Origin: Anaerolineae bacterium
GTDB taxonomy: Bacteria > Chloroflexota > Anaerolineae > JAAYZQ01
DNA length: 24,000 nt
Direction of reading: 5' to 3'
NCBI GenBank assembly: GCA_034428935.1
Contig: DAOUHB010000015.1
Coordinates: 14,147 to 38,146 of the forward strand
The notes under the pieces are model-generated. The model had not been told where the DNA came from. It made no database searches and worked only from the letters and a program-made list of their open reading frames with translations. The position numbers and the translations under genes were made by a program. Shown here piece after piece: positions 1-24,000 of the stretch. Each line of letters starts with the position of its first letter. Positions within the stretch are counted from its first letter, which is position 1.

Positions 1-476
1 CCAACGCGGGCTACCTGTTCCTCAAGAAGCTGGCCCGCAATGAGCCCGGCATCCAACCCGGCGGCGATGAGGTCGACGCGGCCTTTGCGACCCTGGGCAT
101 GGATCCGTCGGTCGAGCCGGGGTATGGCTGGACCGGCCTGTCGAGCTACGAGAGCACCATGGAAGGGGAGCTGGCCATGGCGCCGTGCTACGGCCTCGAA
201 CCGACAGTTGGCATTCTGAAGGCGTCTTACCTGGCGATTGCGAACAAGGCTCCGCATCCCAACGCCGCCAAGCTGTTCATCAAGTTCGCCCTCTCGGAAG
301 AGGGCTTTAAGCCGTGGAACCAGATGGGTGCCTACTCTGGCGTGGAGGGGATGCCCCTCGCCGAAGGCATGCCGGCCAGGGACGAGATCAAGCTCTGGCC
401 CAGCGACGATCTCTTTGGCTATCAAAACCTGAGCCCCGTGCGTGACTTCTGGGCCATCAGTCTACTGGCTCCCTAG
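1..476 (+). CDS. ABC transporter substrate-binding protein, C-terminal part (5' end lies outside the window)
   Basis: The frame is open from the window edge (codon phase from nt 3) to TAG 474-476; track ORF 99..476 is its tail. '...LAIANKAPHPNAAKLFIKFALSEEGFKPW...' resembles the conserved C-terminal lobe of iron/phosphonate/polyamine-class periplasmic binding proteins. The substrate cannot be determined. Confidence 0.7.
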   Translation, partial: NAGYLFLKKLARNEPGIQPGGDEVDAAFATLGMDPSVEPGYGWTGLSSYESTMEGELAMAPCYGLEPTVGILKASYLAIANKAPHPNAAKLFIKFALSEEGFKPWNQMGAYSGVEGMPLAEGMPARDEIKLWPSDDLFGYQNLSPVRDFWAISLLAP

Positions 477-506: not shown

Positions 507-541
507 CTTTGGACACGAACACGCCGTGTTCGTGTCCAAAG
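507..541. terminator. Perfect 17-bp inverted repeat (hairpin); candidate terminator or attenuator between the transporter gene and the HAD operon
   Basis: CTTTGGACACGAACACG (507-523), C (524), CGTGTTCGTGTCCAAAG (525-541) are exact reverse complements. It lies 31 nt after the binding-protein stop. No downstream T-tract, so terminator function is inferred. Confidence 0.4.
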
Positions 542-579
542 GCCCGGCAACCTCACGCGGGAAGGAAAGCGATTCATCC

Positions 580-1353
580 ATGGCGACCAATCGCATCCGC
601 GCCGTCATCTTTGACATGGGCGGCACGCTGGAGACTGTTTACTATGACGATACCACCCGCCACGCGGGTGCGTGCGCGATGCTCGAGTTCTTGCGCAGCC
701 ACGACCTGGACCCCGGCCTGGGGGTGTCCGAGTTACAGGCCGCCGTCGTCTCCGGGATGGAGGCGTACCAGGCGTGGCGAGAAGGAAGCGAGGTGGAGCT
801 GTCGCCCGAGCAGGTGTGGACAGAGCACATCCTGACCGATGGCAGTCTGTGCAAGGAGCGGTTGGCGGCCGTCGCCGAAGAACTGACCTATCTGCACGCC
901 ACCCGGTTTCAGGCGCGGAGCTTGCGCCCCGAGGCGCCGGCCCTTCTCGAGGCGTTGCGCAGCCGCGGACTTCGCCTGGGCATGATCTCCAATGTCCTCA
1001 GCCGCAGGCTGGTGCCGGCCTGCCTCTCAGAGTACGGCATCGCCCACTACTTCGAGCACGTCCTGACCAGCGCTGATTTCGGCTGGCGCAAGCCGAATCG
1101 ACGCATCTTTGACGAGGCGGTCCGCTTGATGGGGGTGCCGGCTGCGGCCTGCGCCTACGTGGGCGACACTCTTTCGCGCGACGTCGTCGGGGCCCGGCGC
1201 GCCGGCTACGGCCTGGCGATCCAGATCCGGTCCTTTCTCACGGCCCGGTCGGACCAGGGCATCGTGGATGTGGAGCCTGACGCGGCCATCCAGGACCTGA
1301 TGGACGTCCTGGGGCTCGTCTCGCCCGTGGGGGAGGCCTCTGCCCATGCTTAA
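580..1353 (+). CDS. HAD-superfamily hydrolase, subfamily IA-like (paralogue 1)
   Basis: Start moved from track ATG 526, which lies inside the 507-541 hairpin, to ATG 580, which is preceded by GGAAGGAAAG (560-569). Motifs: I 'VIFDMGGTL', II 'LGMISNV', III 'WRKPNRRIF', IV 'YVGDTLSRDVVGA'. A helical cap insert sits between motifs I and II. Confidence 0.85.
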   Translation: MATNRIRAVIFDMGGTLETVYYDDTTRHAGACAMLEFLRSHDLDPGLGVSELQAAVVSGMEAYQAWREGSEVELSPEQVWTEHILTDGSLCKERLAAVAEELTYLHATRFQARSLRPEAPALLEALRSRGLRLGMISNVLSRRLVPACLSEYGIAHYFEHVLTSADFGWRKPNRRIFDEAVRLMGVPAAACAYVGDTLSRDVVGARRAGYGLAIQIRSFLTARSDQGIVDVEPDAAIQDLMDVLGLVSPVGEASAHA

Positions 1354-2032
1354 AGGAGTCCTGTTCGATGCGGCGGGCGTGCTGTATCAACGCCCGCAAT
1401 CCACGGGCCAGTTCGTGGCCGACCGTTTGCGGGAGAGGGGTCTCCCGACCGAGCTGACGGAGGAGGATCGCCTGCGGCAGAAGGCGCTCAAGTCGGAAGG
1501 AAGCCGGGGGCGCATCAGCCCCGAGGAATACTGGGATCGGGTGCTCCAGATGCACGGCCTCGACGACCCGGAGGAGCGCCAGAGGCTGATGGCCGCCATC
1601 GACCGCCACTCGGACGACGTCAGGCCGATGCCCGGCTGCCAGGAAACCCTGGCAGGGCTGAAGCAGCGCGGCCTGATCCTGTGTATCGTCACCGACACGA
1701 TGCACTCCCTCGAGCATAAGATGCAGTGGTTGGTGAAGGCCGGCATCGCCCCGTGGATCGATTTCGTGGCCTGTTCGACGGTCCTGGGCGTCCATAAACC
1801 CGACCCTGCCATCTACCTGGACGCGCTGCGACAGGCAGGGCTGCAGGCGGACGAGGCCGCTTTCGTGGGCCACGACGCCGAGGAGCTGGACGGCGCCCGC
1901 GCGGTTGGGCTGGCGACCATCGCCGTGAACCATGATCCTGGCGCCAGGGCGGACTATTACCTGGGCTCGCTCACAGATCTACTCAACGTGCCCATCCTTC
2001 GGGACACAGACGAGCAAGGGGGCAGCGAATGA
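1346..2032 (+). CDS. HAD-superfamily hydrolase, subfamily IA-like (paralogue 2)
   Basis: ATG 1346 overlaps the previous stop (TAA 1351-1353) by 8 nt. Motifs: I 'VLFDAAGVL', II 'ILCIVTDT', III 'VHKPDPAIY', IV 'FVGHDAEELDGA'. Confidence 0.85.
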   Translation: MLKGVLFDAAGVLYQRPQSTGQFVADRLRERGLPTELTEEDRLRQKALKSEGSRGRISPEEYWDRVLQMHGLDDPEERQRLMAAIDRHSDDVRPMPGCQETLAGLKQRGLILCIVTDTMHSLEHKMQWLVKAGIAPWIDFVACSTVLGVHKPDPAIYLDALRQAGLQADEAAFVGHDAEELDGARAVGLATIAVNHDPGARADYYLGSLTDLLNVPILRDTDEQGGSE

Positions 2033-2820
2033 AGGACAACAGGGACATGGAAGCCATTTTCATCGACGTGGGCAACACGATGCGCATTGTGGTCAAGGAC
2101 GACGAGTTTCAGAGCCAGGCCAGGCAGCAGCTCGTGACGTTGGTCGGGGCGAACGAGACGCCCGATGCCTTCTGCGACTTGCTGGAAGCAAGGTACCGGG
2201 TCTACCGGAAGCATGCCAAGCAGTCCTTAACCGAAGCCTGCGAAAGAGATCTGTGGACCCAGTGGATGCTGCCCGACTTTCCGGCCGACAGGATCGGGCC
2301 GCTGTCCGGAAGGCTCACCCGCCTGTGGCGCGATCGCGACGGGCGGCGGGTCGCGCGGCCGGACGTCAAAGACGTGGTGCTGGAGCTGACCCGGCGGGGC
2401 TATCACCTGGGGATCATTGCCAACACGATCACCGAGACCGAGATCCCCGACTGGCTGGAAGCGGACGGCCTGACCGGCTACTTTGAGACCGTGGTCCTTT
2501 CCTCCAAGACCGGCCTGCGCAAGCCCGGCCCGGAGATCTATATCGAGGCGGCGCGCCGCATTGGCGTGGAACCGGCCCGCTCGGTGTACGTGGGCGACAA
2601 TCCTTCCCGCGACATCCTGGGGGCGCGCCTGGCCGGCTACGGGCTGGCCATTATCTTGATGGAGCCGGCCACGCTGGCCAAGGAACCCCCCACCGAGGAT
2701 CACAAGCCCGACTATGTGATCCACGAAATGAGCGATCTCCTCGACCTCTTTCCCGGCCCTCTATCGGGCGCAACGGGCGCGGCAGCGGCAGCCGGAACGC
2801 GGAGAATCGATGCCGGATGA
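2029..2820 (+). CDS. HAD-superfamily hydrolase-like protein (paralogue 3, degenerate motifs)
   Basis: ATGA start/stop overlap with the previous gene (2029-2032). Motifs: I 'IFIDVGNTM', II 'LGIIANT' (Ala where Ser/Thr is expected), III 'LRKPGPEIY', IV 'YVGDNPSRDILGA'. It shares '...SRD..GAR.AGYGLAI' with paralogue 1. Confidence 0.8.
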   Translation: MKDNRDMEAIFIDVGNTMRIVVKDDEFQSQARQQLVTLVGANETPDAFCDLLEARYRVYRKHAKQSLTEACERDLWTQWMLPDFPADRIGPLSGRLTRLWRDRDGRRVARPDVKDVVLELTRRGYHLGIIANTITETEIPDWLEADGLTGYFETVVLSSKTGLRKPGPEIYIEAARRIGVEPARSVYVGDNPSRDILGARLAGYGLAIILMEPATLAKEPPTEDHKPDYVIHEMSDLLDLFPGPLSGATGAAAAAGTRRIDAG

Positions 2821-4417
2821 TTCCCTCCCGCGTGGCGGAGCCATCCTCGCCGAGGCCGTCCGGGACCTGTATCGCCAGGGACAGACCGACTACTGGATCG
2901 AGCCGCTGGTCCTGCTCGACGGCCAGAACAGGCCGGCCGGCCGGATCCAGGACGGCGACGCCGTCGTCTTTTGCTGCCGCCGCGGCGAGCGCGAGATCCA
3001 ACTGACGGAGGCCTTTGTCGATCCCGGCCTGGACCGCTTTCCCCGGCACGAGTTTCAGGATCTGCACTTTGTGATCCTGACCCTCTACCACCAGAAGTTT
3101 GTAGACGTGCCCGTGGCCTTTGCCCCCACCAGCATCGAGGATACCCTGGGGCAGGTCGTCAGCCGCGCCGGACTGCGGCAACTGCGCGTTGCCGAGTCGG
3201 AAAAGTATGCACACGTCACCTATTTCTTGAACGGGGGCCGGGTTCAGCCGTTCCCCGGCCAGGACGGGACGCGCGTTCCCTCTCCCCACGGCATCCCCTT
3301 CGAGCAGGTACCAGAGCTGAGCCTGCCCCGGGTGGCCGAGGAAGTGCTGCGCGGCATGCAGGCGGGCTACGATCTCGTCGTGGCCAATTTTGCCAACGGC
3401 GACGTGCTGGGACACACCCAGAATGCCGAGAGCAAGGTCGCGTGCGCCGGGCTGATCGATGCCCGGCTGGGACAGGTCATCGATGCCGCCCGAGCCCTGG
3501 ACTATGTGACGCTGGTGACGGCCGATCACGGGAACCTGGAAGTGATGGTCCATCCCGACGGCAGGCCCCACGTCTCGCACACGGCCAACCCCGTGCCGTT
3601 CATCCTCGTCGATCCCCGCGGGCCGCAGCCTGTCACGCTGCGCGACGGCAAGCTGGCGGACGTGGCGCCGACCGTGCTGGACGCCCTCGCCCTGGACACG
3701 CCCGGGTCCATGACCGGAGAAACCCTGGCGCCCGGCTGCCGCTGGGGCGGCCGCCGCCGCCTGCTGCTCTTGATCCTCGATGGCTGGGGCCTGGGCAAGA
3801 GCGACGACACGAACCCCATCTTTATCGCCAGGACGCCTGTGTGGGACGAGCTGTTGCAGCGCTTCCCGTGTTCCCTGTTGCAGGCCGCGGGCGAGGCAGT
3901 GGGCCTGCGGCCGGGAAAGCCGGGCAACTCCGAGGCCGGCCACATGAACGCCGGCGCCGGCCGGGTCGTGCTCCAGGACGACGTCCGGCTCGACCTGGCG
4001 ATGCGCGATGGCTCGTTCTACGAGAACGAGGTCCTTGGCCGCGCCATCGAGGAGGCCAAGGCCCGCGACACGAGCCTGCACCTCATCGGCCTCCTCACCG
4101 AAAAAAGCTCCCACGGCTCCATCGACTATCCCCTGGCCCTGCTGCGCATGGCCAGGGCCAGAGGCCTCGGCCGCGTCTACCTGCACCTGATCCTGGACGG
4201 GCGCAGCACGGAGCCGGGCAGCGCCCCGGCGATGCTCGAGAAGCTGGACCGCCAGATAGACGAGATCGGAGTGGGGCGGATCGTCTCCGGGATGGGGAGG
4301 GGGATCGCCCTGGACCGCGATGGCGACTATGCCAGGACCCGGCGCGCCTACGACGTGCTGGTGTTTGGCACCGGGAGGCCGTGCGCCGCCCGGGGATCGA
4401 CACAGAGCGAAAGGTGA
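2810..4417 (+). CDS. Cofactor-independent phosphoglycerate mutase (iPGM, alkaline-phosphatase superfamily) homologue with circularly permuted segment order
   Basis: ATG 2810 overlaps the HAD-3 stop by 11 nt.
- Residues 1-~308 match the C-terminal ~300 aa of canonical iPGM: 'GLRQLRVAESEKYAHVTYFLNGG', 'NFANGDVLGH', 'VTADHGN', 'SHTANPVP', and 'MTGETL' (the normal C-terminus).
- Residues ~317-535 match the normal N-terminus: 'LLLILDGWG', 'GNSEAGHMNAGAGR' (catalytic Ser motif), 'SLHLIGLL', 'LILDGRS', 'ALDRD'. Confidence 0.85.
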   Translation: MPDDSLPRGGAILAEAVRDLYRQGQTDYWIEPLVLLDGQNRPAGRIQDGDAVVFCCRRGEREIQLTEAFVDPGLDRFPRHEFQDLHFVILTLYHQKFVDVPVAFAPTSIEDTLGQVVSRAGLRQLRVAESEKYAHVTYFLNGGRVQPFPGQDGTRVPSPHGIPFEQVPELSLPRVAEEVLRGMQAGYDLVVANFANGDVLGHTQNAESKVACAGLIDARLGQVIDAARALDYVTLVTADHGNLEVMVHPDGRPHVSHTANPVPFILVDPRGPQPVTLRDGKLADVAPTVLDALALDTPGSMTGETLAPGCRWGGRRRLLLLILDGWGLGKSDDTNPIFIARTPVWDELLQRFPCSLLQAAGEAVGLRPGKPGNSEAGHMNAGAGRVVLQDDVRLDLAMRDGSFYENEVLGRAIEEAKARDTSLHLIGLLTEKSSHGSIDYPLALLRMARARGLGRVYLHLILDGRSTEPGSAPAMLEKLDRQIDEIGVGRIVSGMGRGIALDRDGDYARTRRAYDVLVFGTGRPCAARGSTQSER

Positions 4418-4421
4418 GACC

Positions 4422-5615
4422 ATGCTGCCGCCCGACCTGAGTTATGCGCGCTTTTCCCAGGCTCTGTACGAGAGGATGGGAGCCATCAATCCCGGCATCG
4501 AAGACCTGGAGCTGTACGAGTTCCGTTACTGCCTGAACAACCTGAACCCCGGGGAGGGCGGCTGGCCCGCCGTCGCGCCCGCGCCGAGGCAAGAGATCGA
4601 GGCGTGGATCCGGGACGCCGACTTTTATCGGGGCATCCAGATCAAGCCCCGTGCCGGCGACCGGATCGTGCTGGACGAGACCATCGAGCGGCTGACCACC
4701 ATGCTCCTGGTCGGGCTGGTGACCGGGGAATACCCGGCGGAGTGGATTCGGGCCCACTTTTACTTTGACATCCGCGGCTTTTACTTCTTGACGCGGACGC
4801 ACTATTTCACCGAGGCCGTGGTGGCCCACCTGGGCGGCGCGCCGTTCCAGGCCTTCGAACGACGGCAGCGATGCCTCGATCGCTGCCAATCCATCGGCTA
4901 CAAGGCCTTCAAAGAGGCCAACGCCGAGGTGGACGCCGCGTTCATGGACGACGTTGAGAGGCTCATCGCCGTCAAGGGTACCCCCATTGTCCTGGCCATC
5001 GCCGGGCCGACGGCGGCTGGCAAGACCGAGATCGTCGAGCGCCTGCGCTGCCGCTTCGAGGAGGCAGGAAGGCAGGTCACCTCCATCGAGATGGACAACT
5101 TCTTGACCGACCGCGAGCAGCGCGAGGAGAAGGGCATCCACACCCTGGGCAAAGAAGCCATTCATTTTGAGCTTTTCCGGCAGAGCCTGGAGGACATTTG
5201 CCGGGGACGGGCGATCTCGATCCCGCGCTACGATTTCATCTTTGCCACGTCCAGCCACGACCTGGACGGCACGCTAAAGCCGGGCGGGGTGCCCGTCGAG
5301 ATCGAGCCGGCCGACGTCATCTTTATCGAGGGCAACTTTCCGTTCCTGCTGGACGAGGTCGCGCACCTCATCGGCATCAAGGTCGTCTACCTCACCGACG
5401 ACGCCATCCGGCTGAAGCGCAAATGGCGGCGCGATATCGACTATCGCAAGAAGTACGAGCCCACCTACTTTCGCAACCGGTACTTTCGCAACCAGTTCCT
5501 CATGGCCCAAAAGTGCTACGTGCCCCAGATGCAGCTCTGCGATCTGACCGTCGACACAACCGGCGCGGCCATCTGGGCCACGCCCGAAACTGCCGCGACC
5601 CTGAGAAGTCCTTAG
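4422..5615 (+). CDS. Uridine kinase / phosphoribulokinase-family P-loop kinase with an unrecognised N-terminal domain
   Basis: ATG 4422 follows GAAAGGTGA (4409-4417) and lies 4 nt after the mutase stop. Track ATG 4320 would overlap the mutase gene by 98 nt. The C-terminal half carries a Walker A 'IAGPTAAGKTEIVERL', 'SIEMDNF', 'IPRYDF', 'VIFIEGNF' and 'DAIRLKRKWRRDI', as in the Udk/PRK family. I do not recognise residues 1-~185. Confidence 0.8.
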   Translation: MLPPDLSYARFSQALYERMGAINPGIEDLELYEFRYCLNNLNPGEGGWPAVAPAPRQEIEAWIRDADFYRGIQIKPRAGDRIVLDETIERLTTMLLVGLVTGEYPAEWIRAHFYFDIRGFYFLTRTHYFTEAVVAHLGGAPFQAFERRQRCLDRCQSIGYKAFKEANAEVDAAFMDDVERLIAVKGTPIVLAIAGPTAAGKTEIVERLRCRFEEAGRQVTSIEMDNFLTDREQREEKGIHTLGKEAIHFELFRQSLEDICRGRAISIPRYDFIFATSSHDLDGTLKPGGVPVEIEPADVIFIEGNFPFLLDEVAHLIGIKVVYLTDDAIRLKRKWRRDIDYRKKYEPTYFRNRYFRNQFLMAQKCYVPQMQLCDLTVDTTGAAIWATPETAATLRSP

Positions 5616-10413: not shown

Positions 10414-10641
10414 GAGTGCGTGGGCGGCGTTGCCCCATCTCAAGCTCGATTTCGCGAGCGTCCTCGCCATATGCCCTGACAATGTTGTTCCCCGGGACAC
10501 CGATCAGGTCGCGAACCAAGAGCATCGATCCTACCGGCGCCAGCCGGCAGGCGGCGACGTGTCGCGCGATCTTGGCTTCCTGTTCGCTGGCTGGGTCCGG
10601 TGTTGGCGGTCGAATCACCCTTTTGTACGGGAGGTACCAGT

Positions 10642-11799
10642 ATGGACATTCTGACCCTGGACGACTTTGGCGCTCTCGAGGCCCAGGATGCCAGCCCCTG
10701 CGTCTCGATCTTTATGCCCACCCATCGCGCCGGCCGGGAGACCCAGCAGGACCCGCTTCGCCTCAAGAACCTGCTGGGAGAGGCGGAAGCGCGGCTGATC
10801 GACGCCGGCCTGCGCTCCCCCGTGGCGCGGGAGGTGTTGGAACCTGCCCAGGCGCTCCTGGACGAATCCGCCTTTTGGCGGCACGCGAGCGACGGCCTGG
10901 CGTTGTTTGCCGCGCCGGGGGAGTTTCACACCTATCGCCTGCCCCTCGACCTGGAAGAACTGCTCGTCGTCGCCCCACGCTTTCACCTGAAGCCGCTGTT
11001 GCCGTTTTTCGCCGGCGACGGCCACTTTTTCATCCTGGCCCTCAGCCAGGACCACGTCCGCCTGCTGGAAGGCACCCGCCACGGCGTGGACGAGATCGAG
11101 CTGGAAGGAGTCCCCACCAGCATGGCCGAGTCCCTGCCCCACGATGACCTGCAAGCGCACCTCCAGTTCCAGACCCGCACGGGGATGGCGCAGGAGGGGG
11201 GCGATCGGGCAGCCGGTTTTCACGGCCACGATCCCGACGACGAGGCCAAGAACCGCATCCTCCGCTACTTTCAGCGTCTCGACGAGGGCCTTCAGGAGGT
11301 GCTGCGCAACGAGCGGTCACCCCTGGTGCTGGCCGGCGTAGACTATCTCCTGCCCATTTACCGGGAGGCGAACAGCTATCGCCACCTGGTGGACGACGAG
11401 GGGATCACGGGCAACCCTGAGGAGATGAGGGCCGAGGAGCTTCACACACCGGCGTGGGAGATTGTGGAGCCCCGCTTTGCCGCCGCCCAGCGCCAGGCGC
11501 GGGACGCCTATGCCCAGGTGGCAGGCACCGGGCGGACATCCACCCGCGTGGGAGAGGTCGTGCCGGCGGCTCACTACGGCCGCGTGGACGTGCTGTGGGT
11601 GTCCCTGAATAGCCAGGTGTGGGGGCGCTTCGACCCGGAGACCGGGAACATCCAGAGGCGCGAGGAGCCGGAAGCCGGAGACGAGGACCTGCTGGACCTG
11701 GCTGCCCTGCGGACCCTGTCGAATGGCGGCACGGTTTATGCCGTAGACACGGCCGGGGTGCCCGGCGGCGGGCCGCTGGCGGCCCTCTTGCGCTATTGA
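10642..11799 (+). CDS. Bacterial archaeo-eukaryotic release-factor-like (baeRF-type, eRF1/Pelota superfamily) protein
   Basis: ATG 10642 follows GGGAGG (10629-10634). The N-terminus 'PCVSIFMPTHRAGRETQQDPLRLKNLLGEAEARL' is, as I recall it, the signature of baeRF3-like proteins. The C-terminus 'LLDLAALRTLSNGGTVYAV' resembles eRF1 domain 3. No GGQ motif is present. The family call is from memory only. Confidence 0.6.
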   Translation: MDILTLDDFGALEAQDASPCVSIFMPTHRAGRETQQDPLRLKNLLGEAEARLIDAGLRSPVAREVLEPAQALLDESAFWRHASDGLALFAAPGEFHTYRLPLDLEELLVVAPRFHLKPLLPFFAGDGHFFILALSQDHVRLLEGTRHGVDEIELEGVPTSMAESLPHDDLQAHLQFQTRTGMAQEGGDRAAGFHGHDPDDEAKNRILRYFQRLDEGLQEVLRNERSPLVLAGVDYLLPIYREANSYRHLVDDEGITGNPEEMRAEELHTPAWEIVEPRFAAAQRQARDAYAQVAGTGRTSTRVGEVVPAAHYGRVDVLWVSLNSQVWGRFDPETGNIQRREEPEAGDEDLLDLAALRTLSNGGTVYAVDTAGVPGGGPLAALLRY

Positions 11800-11908: not shown

Positions 11909-13687
11909 ATGACGCCACAAATTGCCCTCACCCTGGCCATTATCGGCGTGGCGGTGGTGCTCTTTGCCACGGAAAAGCTGCGCGTCGACGTGATCGCCCT
12001 CCTGGTTCTCGTGGCCCTGTTCCTCGGGGGCCTGGTCAGCCCTGGCGAAATGTTTGCCGGCTTTGCCAGCCCCGCGGTCGTGACCGTGTGGGCCGTCTAT
12101 ATCGTGTCCGGCGCCCTGTTCAAGACCGGCGTCGCCGACTTTTTAGGAGAGCGCATTATCAGCCTCGCGGGTACCAGCGAGCCGCGGCTCATCGCCATTA
12201 TCATGCTCACCTGCGGCGTCATGTCGGCCTTTATGAACAACATCGGGGCCACGGCTGTTTTGCTCCCGGCCGTGGTGGGCGTTTCGCGCAAGGCCAACGT
12301 GCCGCTGTCGCGGCTGCTCATCCCCCTGTCGTTCTCGTCGCTCCTGGGCGGCAACATGACCCTCATCGGCACGCCGCCCAACGTCCTCGCCGCCGGCCTG
12401 CTGGCCGATCAAGGGCTGCCCGGTTTCGGATTCTTTGACTTCCTGCCGACGGGCGCCATCGTCTTTGGCGCCGGCATCCTCTACATGGTGCTTGCCGGCC
12501 GGCACCTTATCCCTGTGCGGCAGCCGGTGGAGGAGGTACAGGCGGCGGCCATGCGGGAATACGTCAGCGAGGTCCGGGTGTCGACGGATGGCACGCTTGC
12601 GGGCCAGACCCTGCGTGAATCCCGCCTCGGGGCGGAATATGACCTGACGGTCATCGGCATCCTTCGGGACGACGTGATGCTGAGCATGCTCAATCCTGAG
12701 ACACGCCTGGAGCCCGGCGACCTCCTTCTTCTGGAGGGCACAGTAGAGGGGTTGATGCGCGCCCGTGGCGCCCTTGGACTGGAAATCGAGGCCGAGCGCA
12801 AATGGGCCCTGGACGACCTGGAGTCCGGCGATGCCCACGTCGTGGAGGCTACCCTGGCCCCCCGCTCGCACATGGTGGGCCGCACCCTACGGAACACGCA
12901 CTTTCGGGATCGCTACGGCTTCACAGCCCTGGCCATCTGGCGCCAGGGCGAGGTCATCACCCAGCGCCTGCGCGACGTGCGGCTGCGGTTCGGCGACGCC
13001 TTGCTGTTATGGGGGCCACGCCACCGCCTGCCCGGGCTCCAGGAAGATGGCGATTTCCTGGTCCTGGAGCCCGTCAAGATGGAAACGCGCCGCCAGCACA
13101 AGGCGCCCATCGCCGTTGGGGCCATGGCCCTCGTCCTGATCCTGGCAACCCTGGCAGACCTGCCCATCGCCACGGCCATGGTCATCGGCGCGGTGGTGAC
13201 GGTGCTGGGCGGGTGCCTCACCATGGACGAGGCCTACCAGAGCATCGAATGGCGCAGCGTGTTCTTGATCGCCGGCATGCTGCCCCTGGGTACGGCCATG
13301 GAGACGACCGGCACCGCCCGCTTCCTGGCCGATCTGCTCGTGGGCCTCCTGGGCAGCATTGGCCCGTTGGCCATCCTGGCGGGCATCTATATCCTGGCCG
13401 GCCTGATCACCGAGCCCATGTCCAATGCCGCGGCCACGGTGTTGATGGTCCCCATCGCCATCGACATCGCCCTGGGCCTGGGCGCCAATCCCCAGCCCTT
13501 TGTCCTGGCGACGGTCATCGGCGCTTCGACCAGTTTTCTCACTCCCGTAGGCCACCAGGCCAACGTCCTGGTGCTCGGACCCGGTGGCTACCGTTTTTTC
13601 GATTACACCCGCGTCGGAAGCCTTCTCAACCTGGTCATCCTGGCCGTCACGTTGGTCTTCTTGCCGCTCATCTGGCCGCTGTTCTAG
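11909..13687 (+). CDS. SLC13/DASS-family anion permease with two central TrkA-C (RCK C-terminal) domains
   Basis: Hydrophobic N- and C-terminal halves ('MSAFMNNIGATAVLLP', 'EPMSNAAATVLMVPIA') flank two TrkA-C-like units ('VRVSTDGTLAGQTLRES...LEPGDLLLLEG' and 'VEATLAPRSHMVGRTLRN...LRFGDALLLWG'). Confidence 0.85.
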   Translation: MTPQIALTLAIIGVAVVLFATEKLRVDVIALLVLVALFLGGLVSPGEMFAGFASPAVVTVWAVYIVSGALFKTGVADFLGERIISLAGTSEPRLIAIIMLTCGVMSAFMNNIGATAVLLPAVVGVSRKANVPLSRLLIPLSFSSLLGGNMTLIGTPPNVLAAGLLADQGLPGFGFFDFLPTGAIVFGAGILYMVLAGRHLIPVRQPVEEVQAAAMREYVSEVRVSTDGTLAGQTLRESRLGAEYDLTVIGILRDDVMLSMLNPETRLEPGDLLLLEGTVEGLMRARGALGLEIEAERKWALDDLESGDAHVVEATLAPRSHMVGRTLRNTHFRDRYGFTALAIWRQGEVITQRLRDVRLRFGDALLLWGPRHRLPGLQEDGDFLVLEPVKMETRRQHKAPIAVGAMALVLILATLADLPIATAMVIGAVVTVLGGCLTMDEAYQSIEWRSVFLIAGMLPLGTAMETTGTARFLADLLVGLLGSIGPLAILAGIYILAGLITEPMSNAAATVLMVPIAIDIALGLGANPQPFVLATVIGASTSFLTPVGHQANVLVLGPGGYRFFDYTRVGSLLNLVILAVTLVFLPLIWPLF

Positions 13688-23607: not shown

Positions 23608-24000
23608 ATGCAGCCCAACGGCTATCGAGACGCTCTCAACTATCTCTACAGTTTCACCGACTACGAAAAAAGAGGATTTGCCGCATACGCCCCCGAGTTC
23701 TACAACCTCGACCGTATGCGGCACTTTTTGGCGCTGCTGGGCGATCCGCAGCAGGCGTTTCCGTCGCTGCACGTTGCCGGCACCAAGGGCAAGGGATCCA
23801 CGGCGGCCCTGGTCGAGTCGATCCTGCGCGCCGCCGGCCTGAAGACCGGCCTGTACACTTCTCCCCACCTGCACTCCTTTCGCGAGCGGATACAGGCTGG
23901 CGGGGCCTTGATCCCCGAGGCGGACGTCGTGCGCCTGGTGGAGAGCACCCGGTCCCTCGTCCGCCAGGTGGACGATATCACCACCTTCGAGATCATGACC
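23608..24000 (+). CDS. folC: Folylpolyglutamate synthase / dihydrofolate synthase, N-terminal part (runs off the window end)
   Basis: Not in the ORF track because there is no stop in the window. ATG 23608 gives 'MQPNGYRDALNYLYSFTDYEK...LDRMRHFLALLGDPQQAFPSLHVAGTKGKGSTAALVESILRAAGLKTGLYTSPHLHSFRERI', the Mur-ligase/FolC P-loop and N-terminal pattern. Confidence 0.9.
   Translation, partial: MQPNGYRDALNYLYSFTDYEKRGFAAYAPEFYNLDRMRHFLALLGDPQQAFPSLHVAGTKGKGSTAALVESILRAAGLKTGLYTSPHLHSFRERIQAGGALIPEADVVRLVESTRSLVRQVDDITTFEIMT

Follow-up and report, generated by a model that had tools for sequence, protein, structure and literature searches.

Cofactor-independent phosphoglycerate mutase (iPGM or GpmI, EC 5.4.2.12) is familiar from textbooks as an enzyme of glycolysis, and in parasites and bacteria it serves as a drug target. 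In its canonical form the phosphatase domain carries the transferase domain as an insertion, and the two-domain open/close mechanism relies on two hinge peptides. The enzyme is represented by the Geobacillus stearothermophilus structures 1EJJ/1O98 and recognised by the models TIGR01307, PF01676 (Metalloenzyme) and PF06415 (iPGM_N). Proteins are known to evolve by circular permutation, and the permuted forms are generally believed to originate by duplication and then truncation. Here, we analysed a stretch of 24,000 nucleotides from an Anaerolineae bacterium of the Chloroflexota (GenBank assembly GCA_034428935.1, contig DAOUHB010000015.1, positions 14,147 to 38,146 of the forward strand; hereafter the window, with positions counted from its first letter), in which the gene at 2810-4417 encodes a protein, the query, that contains a whole iPGM in swapped order.

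Compared with iPGM/GpmI, the query has both domains complete at ~39-42% identity, retains equivalents of seven metal-site residues (including the serine nucleophile) and of seven substrate-cage residues, and has a predicted model whose best PDB match is the closed form; it differs in its permuted chain order, in 16 near-invariant positions that are changed in its clade, and in its non-glycolytic operon. Two related enzymes are more distant. The archaeal-type phosphoglycerate mutase apgM (PF10143; TIGR00306/NF003160) belongs to the same alkaline-phosphatase-like metalloenzyme superfamily as the query but differs by its cap domain; the query has no PF10143 match and scores 36.2 bits with TIGR00306 against a cut-off of 320. 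Judged by sequence, apgM is a neighbour of the query gene and not its family. Phosphopentomutase DeoB shares the Metalloenzyme superfamily core and the phospho-enzyme mutase mechanism, whereas the DeoB models give only 27-32 bits with the query (cut-offs 254-256), confined to the metal-binding core.

The first-pass annotation of this DNA, made from the letters alone, knew of no described permuted iPGM. In agreement with this, searches of bioRxiv and of 7.7 million PMC papers returned no description of one, a 2010 survey of bacterial phosphoglycerate mutase (PGM) evolution does not mention it, and no dedicated NCBIfam model exists; the permuted proteins are mostly named 2,3-bisphosphoglycerate-independent phosphoglycerate mutase in the databases. 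With its new topology, the permuted iPGM counts as a variant and a subfamily within a known enzyme rather than as a system of a new kind.

The gene encodes the segments of iPGM in swapped order

The permuted iPGM gene is an open reading frame (ORF) on the forward strand, open throughout its 535 codons plus stop. A GGAG lies 7 nt 5' of its ATG, which overlaps the stop of an upstream HAD gene by 11 nt. When the query was searched against the PDB with phmmer, its best match was G. stearothermophilus iPGM (1EJJ/1O98; whole-protein E = 8e-115). Residues 15-306 aligned to residues 218-508 of the 1EJJ chain with 226.5 bits and residues 316-523 to residues 4-211 with 160 bits, so that the order of the two halves is swapped, and this swapped-order match is far beyond chance. 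The profiles were split in the same manner. PF01676 scored 207.3 bits (gathering score 24.3) in two stretches, the best being residues 105-296 on profile 64-251/252; PF06415 scored 166 bits, likewise in two stretches, of which the best, residues 396-524, covers only positions 3-131 of the 217 in the profile; and TIGR01307 reached 478.8 bits (cut-off 330.65) as the sum of two stretches. The NCBIfam model NF003897 gave 392.9 bits, which is below its cut-off of 862. Because the Pfam profile stretches split there, the break is placed inside the transferase (iPGM_N) domain, with the new termini at canonical residues about 212-217. The five segments of the query follow one another as listed here, which is not the colinear order of iPGM.

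2810..3121, + strand: second half of the transferase (iPGM_N) domain, amino acids 1-104; canonical ~212-310 by alignment to 1EJJ; carries R58 and R61
3122..3727, + strand: C-terminal part of the phosphatase domain (alkaline-phosphatase-like), amino acids 105-306; canonical ~311-508; carries K132, D198, H202, D239, H240 and H257
3728..3760, + strand: linker APGCRWGGRRR, amino acids 307-317, in the gap between the two phmmer stretches; joins the old C-terminus to the old N-terminus
3761..3973, + strand: N-terminal part of the phosphatase domain, amino acids 318-388; canonical ~6-76; carries D324, S374 and H378 (= H66)
3974..4414, + strand: first half of the transferase domain, amino acids 389-535; canonical 77-211, followed by a tail of 12 disordered residues; carries H435, R465, S466, R497 and R503

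The motifs of the family are distributed over these segments as follows (amino acid positions).

First half: ESEKY 129-133, NGDVLGH 196-202, TADHGN 237-242, SHTANP 256-261, MTGETL 301-306
Second half: LILDGWG 321-327, GNSEAGH 372-378, LHLIGLL 423-429, ILDGRS 461-466, ALDRD 500-504

The first-pass annotation had quoted these motifs, and all are present in the ORF translation. Its central claims, that a whole iPGM is present in swapped halves, that the breakpoint falls within the transferase domain and that the old termini are fused through a short Arg-rich linker, agree with the phmmer alignment to 1EJJ, the split stretches of iPGM_N and the position of APGCRWGGRRR, respectively, and the PF01676 and PF06415 scan gives a permuted domain order rather than the normal N-to-C one.

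In terms of topology, the phosphatase domain of the permutant is contiguous (~amino acids 105-388) and the transferase domain is split (amino acids 1-104 and 389-523). This natural permutant is thus the reverse of the canonical architecture: it is now the transferase domain that encloses the phosphatase domain. The chain begins midway in the transferase domain, passes through hinge 2 into the phosphatase domain and reaches the conserved 11-residue linker; after the linker, it completes the phosphatase domain and returns through hinge 1 to the first half of the transferase domain. Since the two inter-domain crossings (the hinges) remain, the open/close mechanism can be preserved.

The permuted order is conserved across genomes

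Of 7745 homologues in the databases, the best 120 align to the query in one colinear alignment over 95-100% of its length, with identities of 69-95%. Judged by motif order, 117 of these 120 are permuted and the remaining 3 are unclassified. When one genome was scanned for each GTDB species, a relative was encoded at no fewer than 536 loci; the best 80 of them plus the window make up the 81 loci on which the locus statistics are based, with +/-8 kb taken around each gene. The 80 retrieved loci are all from Chloroflexota, most of them under the label Anaerolineae. Among them are the cultured type strain Levilinea saccharolytica KIBI-1 (NZ_LGCM01000037.1; orthologue at L035 8001-9587), the complete Anaerolineales chromosome CP070811.1 and megabase-scale contigs. 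In every one of the 81 loci the gene is a single intact ORF of about 531 amino acids. The 120 close homologues have a mean column identity of 76% and show no truncations, and the linker residues W312, R316 and R317 are each at least 90% conserved among them.

These data bear on two trivial explanations. The first is an artefact, that is, an assembly chimera or two genes joined by a sequencing error at nt 3728-3760. The same single ORF and the same junction recur across many projects, in at least 536 species-level genomes that include an isolate genome, a closed chromosome and megabase-scale contigs, the ORF is intact in all 81 loci, the linker residues are conserved and confidently modelled, and a search of the junction sequence gave no significant long DNA repeats at or around it; such an artefact is hardly credible. 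The possibility of a chimera had been raised by the first-pass annotation, and it is removed by the occurrence of the same junction in independent genomes. The second explanation is that the gene is left over from a tandem duplication and is decaying or has lost its catalysis, to which the general route of duplication and then truncation would lend some ground. However, the catalytic residues are invariant down to 39% identity, the close homologues have the column identity given above and no truncations, and no tandem-duplication or partial-duplication intermediates were found among the long iPGM-containing representatives, which comprised only N-terminal extensions, an apgM fusion and a 5027-aa protein; a dead remnant is very improbable. 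The artefact and pseudogene readings are effectively excluded. As far as sequence comparison can tell, it is a near certainty that the query is a genuine, evolutionarily fixed circular permutant of iPGM, and that the permutation is real and functional.

The catalytic machinery is retained in the permuted chain

Geobacillus residue numbers were transferred to the query from the phmmer alignment to 1EJJ, with V122 mapped by hand from the same alignment. The metal site and the nucleophile are kept (Geobacillus/query: D12/D324, S62/S374, D403/D198, H407/H202, D444/D239, H445/H240 and H462/H257), as are the residues that we take to form the substrate cage from the Jedrzejas/Rigden structural papers: H123/H435, R153/R465, R185/R497, R191/R503, R261/R58, R264/R61 and K336/K132. 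Apart from the equivalent of R153, all of these residues are invariant among 16 permuted proteins, down to 39% identity, and D324, S374 and H378 are also invariant among the 120 close homologues. This residue map bears out the earlier statement that the catalytic serine and every metal ligand are retained.

An AlphaFold2 model built with 120 homologues was confident, with a mean predicted local distance difference test (pLDDT) score of 88 and a predicted template modelling (pTM) score of 0.87. The linker scored ~94-95, the segment of amino acids 1-104 mostly 79-95 beyond residue 10, and disorder was restricted to residues 1-5 and 529-535. With Foldseek, the top PDB match of the model was the closed, substrate-bound structure 1EJJ (E = 1.4e-18, root-mean-square deviation 3.3 A, query-normalised template modelling score 0.48), aligned over 300 columns of 535; coverage of about half the length is to be expected when a sequential aligner is given a permutant.

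The retained machinery would imply an iPGM-like phosphotransfer mechanism with a phospho-Ser and two metals. In such a mechanism, the binuclear site formed by the seven metal-site residues (D324, S374, D198, H202, D239, H240 and H257) would activate Ser374 to accept a phosphoryl group. The donor would be a small phospho-ester anion that the transferase domain grips with its Arg/His/Lys cage (H435, R465, R497, R503, R58, R61 and K132); the phosphoryl group would then go back to a neighbouring hydroxyl once the substrate has reoriented. The chemistry is probably conserved.

Most permuted proteins form one clade with a changed pocket

With phmmer, run exhaustively against 1.84 billion cluster representatives, there were 11,622 matches. 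Among the best 150 of these, about 21 are permuted and 125 canonical, the order having been assigned by BLAST with the two query halves; a regular-expression comparison of GNSE.GH with [AS]DHGN was too strict and left 46 of the 150 unclassified. Canonical proteins begin at rank 9 of the list, at ~44% identity. Neighbour-joining (NJ) trees were computed from the permuted sequences, re-permuted to canonical order, together with 120 canonical representatives (501 columns). In these trees, 17 of 20 permuted sequences, including the query, form one clade with a support of 189 of 200 bootstrap replicates. The other three, P0140, P0144 and P0150, fall outside this clade, with a support of at most 31% for any placement, and have the same breakpoint and fused termini as the query. 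P0150 has only five permuted relatives, its next-best matches being canonical 510-aa iPGMs at ~50% identity. At an NJ support of at most 31%, the permutation may have arisen in a single event or in several.

Sixteen positions that are 85-98% conserved in the 120 canonical representatives are all replaced in the 17-member clade, and most of them lie in the transferase domain, beside the substrate-binding arginines. The replacements from Geobacillus to the query include V122 to S434, H128 to Y440, D154 to S466, M189 to L501, W195 to Y507, E231 to Y28, N259 to C56, D263 to E60, and G409 to Q204 (Q/P in the clade). Of the canonical residues that the query lacks, D154, N259, H128, D263, M189 and G409 are each 97-98% conserved among the canonical representatives, and E231 is 93% conserved. 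The residues in the new pocket are themselves fixed, as S433, S434, H435, G436, D463, G464, R465, S466, T467 and C56 are invariant in the 120 close homologues. The first-pass annotation had remarked on several of these changes (D154 to S, H125 to S, W195 to Y, and DGGVHSH to EKSSHGS, in which His123 is kept); they are real, are fixed in the 120 close homologues and are characteristic of the whole clade.

In contrast, P0140, P0144 and P0150 have the canonical residue at each of the 16 positions where aligned. Together with the five relatives of P0150, these canonical-pocket permuted iPGMs keep DGRD, GVHS, N259, E231 and other canonical residues, unlike the query, and they are equally near (~50% identity) to canonical iPGMs and to the query clade. 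Because the outlying permuted proteins keep a canonical pocket while the substitutions are fixed in the Anaerolineae group, the permutation can be separated from the change of the pocket, and the latter follows the clade.

The 5027-aa protein P0246 (L086 128-15211) is a single ORF spanning a 15.6-kb contig with a GC content of 61%, with 4 stops in its frame versus 34-182 in the others. Its permuted iPGM module, at amino acids 3855-4371, has canonical-type motifs, and the remainder is without a recorded Pfam match.

The permuted iPGM lies in a conserved operon

In the window, the permuted iPGM gene is the fifth gene of a co-directional, overlapping string. Its partners are as follows.

99..476, + strand: 3' end of an ABC solute-binding protein (SBP) gene; weak SBP_bac_1 match, syntenic in 26 loci, true start probably upstream of the window
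526..1353, + strand: HAD-IA phosphatase HAD1 (Pfam/NCBIfam)
1346..2032, + strand: HAD-IA phosphatase HAD2 (Pfam/NCBIfam)
2029..2820, + strand: HAD-IA phosphatase HAD3 (Pfam/NCBIfam), whose stop overlaps the start of the permuted iPGM
4422..5615, + strand: P-loop kinase of the PRK/uridine-kinase family, 397 amino acids (PF00485), last gene of the operon

The ATG of the kinase at 4422 is preceded by GAAAGGTGAG, and downstream of the kinase there is a convergent amino-acid permease-Usp gene on the minus strand. The SBP of the window is related to those that adjoin distant permuted iPGMs.

Both an order shared with orthologues and a shared operon had been suggested as a check on the single sequence, and both are present in the related loci. 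The most constant neighbour is a relative of HAD3, with a tblastn match in 79 of 80 related loci, just upstream of the permuted iPGM in nearly all of them. Over the 81 loci, HAD genes amount to 169 copies in 80 loci and PRK-like kinases to 98 copies in 66; an archaeal-type apgM (NF003160, 546 bits versus a cut-off of 468) lies directly downstream in 63, an RpiR regulator is found in 57, an ABC ATPase in 43 and a fused two-domain ABC permease in 42. No glycolytic genes appeared among the conserved neighbour families of the Anaerolineae loci. In P0048 (935 amino acids), a permuted iPGM (1-530) is naturally fused to an archaeal-type apgM (535-935), the latter 69% identical to the neighbour gene of Levilinea; this fusion is a Rosetta-stone link between the two mutases.

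The PRK-like kinases, annotated merely as 'uridine kinase' or 'hypothetical', are ~400 amino acids long and consist of the PRK/uridine-kinase P-loop domain and a conserved N-terminal domain of ~185 amino acids, for which no Pfam match was found; their genes are often tandemly duplicated. An AlphaFold2 model of the kinase (pLDDT 80) matches UCK2, PRK and PanK over the C-terminal domain only, and the PDB fold matches listed extend over ~200 columns, which is the size of the kinase domain.

The transporter linkage extends to distant members of the clade. P0126 lies directly after genes for a LysR regulator, an SBP, a fused permease and an ATPase, and P0124 lies between a LysR gene and genes for a fused permease, an ATPase and a putative SBP, with two glycerophosphodiester phosphodiesterases and a second permuted iPGM nearby. 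Compared with the Levilinea proteins, the permeases are 40% (P0124 locus) and 28% (P0126 locus) identical, the ATPases 46% and 49%, and the SBP 25% (E = 4e-30). P0150, which has the canonical pocket, lies directly after the glucose-6-phosphate isomerase gene (PGI) in a housekeeping neighbourhood.

Two side observations concern the neighbourhoods of relatives. On the single contig L088 (14522-15548; 7001-8548), two diverged permuted iPGM paralogues, ~50% identical to each other, lie on either side of an ABC importer and of two genes for glycerophosphodiester phosphodiesterases. Sugar-acid and inositol genes stand beside the operon in many Anaerolineae, at L035 (2661-6226) and at some 17-49 loci besides. 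They comprise an iolG-like inositol 2-dehydrogenase, MMSDH and an iolE-like gene, and, on the opposite strand, gnd, LacI, a D-mannonate oxidoreductase and a LarA-like protein that is a putative hexonate epimerase.

Pocket and operon point to a probable specialised mutase

The question raised by these findings is what the enzymes of the query clade do. Most likely, to judge from pocket and gene context, they are not ordinary housekeeping copies. We lean slightly towards a specialised mutase that would work within the HAD/kinase/apgM/ABC operon on phosphoglycerate or a close phospho-acid analogue made from an imported compound. A specialised role is favoured because the pocket residues are replaced and then fixed, because a second PGM-type enzyme adjoins the gene and is sometimes fused to it, and because the transporter linkage is kept in distant members.

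A substrate other than phosphoglycerate is plausible. In the more far-reaching form of this proposal, the large clade with the SSHG/DGRS pocket would be a neofunctionalised phospho-mutase outside glycolysis that isomerises another phospho-acid or phospho-polyol in an undescribed organophosphate-utilisation pathway, together with an Fbp/Afu-type ABC importer, HAD phosphatases, PRK-like kinases and the archaeal-type PGM, and the permutation would have preceded the specialisation. We rate this as a serious possibility, somewhat short of an even chance.

Several observations weigh against a specialised role. All the known contacts to 3-phosphoglycerate and 2-phosphoglycerate (3PG/2PG) except D154 are kept in the query, so that plain PGM activity is fully possible; TIGR01307, which is an equivalog model, scores above its cut-off; and no apgM or other PGM gene was found when the 24-kb window was searched for one. 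In addition, the roles of the substituted residues are presumed from the literature rather than from coordinates, and a literature search returned no open-access statement on the role of Asp154. The main rival is that the topology has changed and the function has not, the enzyme being an ordinary glycolytic/gluconeogenic mutase (3PG<->2PG) whose operon partners either have no bearing on it or take phosphoglycerate as one of their usual intermediates. It is favoured by the TIGR01307 score and by the lack of another PGM gene in the 24-kb window, it gains from the conservation of the nucleophile, the metal ligands and the whole set of H123, R153, R185, R191, R261, R264 and K336 equivalents, and the canonical-pocket permuted relative next to PGI indicates that the permutation fits a glycolytic context. 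On the other hand, sixteen near-invariant canonical positions have been replaced and then fixed in the clade, and an apgM directly downstream in 63 of 81 loci, fused in P0048, would make the same activity redundant within one operon. Almost everywhere the gene is syntenic with HAD phosphatases, kinases and an ABC importer, and the conserved neighbour families of the Anaerolineae loci include no glycolytic gene. On balance, we consider an ordinary PGM rather unlikely.

The linkage to importers raises a further alternative, in which the enzyme would be a hydrolytic phosphatase or phosphodiesterase that scavenges organophosphate alongside the ABC importer and the HAD phosphatases, with water resolving the phospho-Ser. 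The alkaline-phosphatase superfamily switches readily between transfer and hydrolysis, Fbp/Afu-type ABC importers are recurrently linked to the gene, the operon contains several HAD phosphatases, and in L088 the gene is linked to a LysR regulator and to a pair of glycerophosphodiester phosphodiesterases. Nevertheless, the whole transferase domain and its Arg cage, which are there to hold the dephosphorylated intermediate, are invariant, and the kinases of the same operon speak against pure phosphate release; a hydrolase is improbable, and the specialised mutase remains the reading that we prefer.

Other features of the window

Outside the operon, four regions of the window were recorded. They are listed here as observations in their own right.

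10600-11799: bacterial archaeo-eukaryotic release-factor-like protein (baeRF family 3/7, E = 1e-47), upstream of the CitMHS transporter gene
11909-13687: CitMHS transporter, which has TrkA_C domains
17201-20071, + strand: 956-aa secreted-type protein with a reprolysin-like M12B metallopeptidase, fn3 and a 3-keto-disaccharide hydrolase/LamG-like domain
20799-23618, - strand: 939-aa ORF whose sole Pfam match is a C-terminal ILEI domain

The GC content of the region 20799-23618 is unusually high (0.71-0.72), with a strong AT skew of 0.36 at 22001-23000. An ORF at 20655-23561 on the + strand has no Pfam match, and its translation resembles an antisense reading of the 939-aa gene.

Discussion

The permutation of iPGM described here is fixed in hundreds of species, and the catalytic machine therefore tolerates a wholly different chain topology. 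The permuted iPGM is thereby an experiment made by nature and ready for use in studies of folding and of hinge dynamics and in the engineering of proteins.

Anaerolineae are abundant in digesters, sediments and wastewater. Because the permuted proteins are annotated as ordinary iPGM, metabolic reconstructions of these bacteria may credit them with a glycolytic step that is really done by another enzyme. Furthermore, the conserved operon links the permuted iPGM to an ABC importer and to a family of kinases that is uncharacterised, and it offers an entry to a possibly new organophosphate or acid-sugar pathway.

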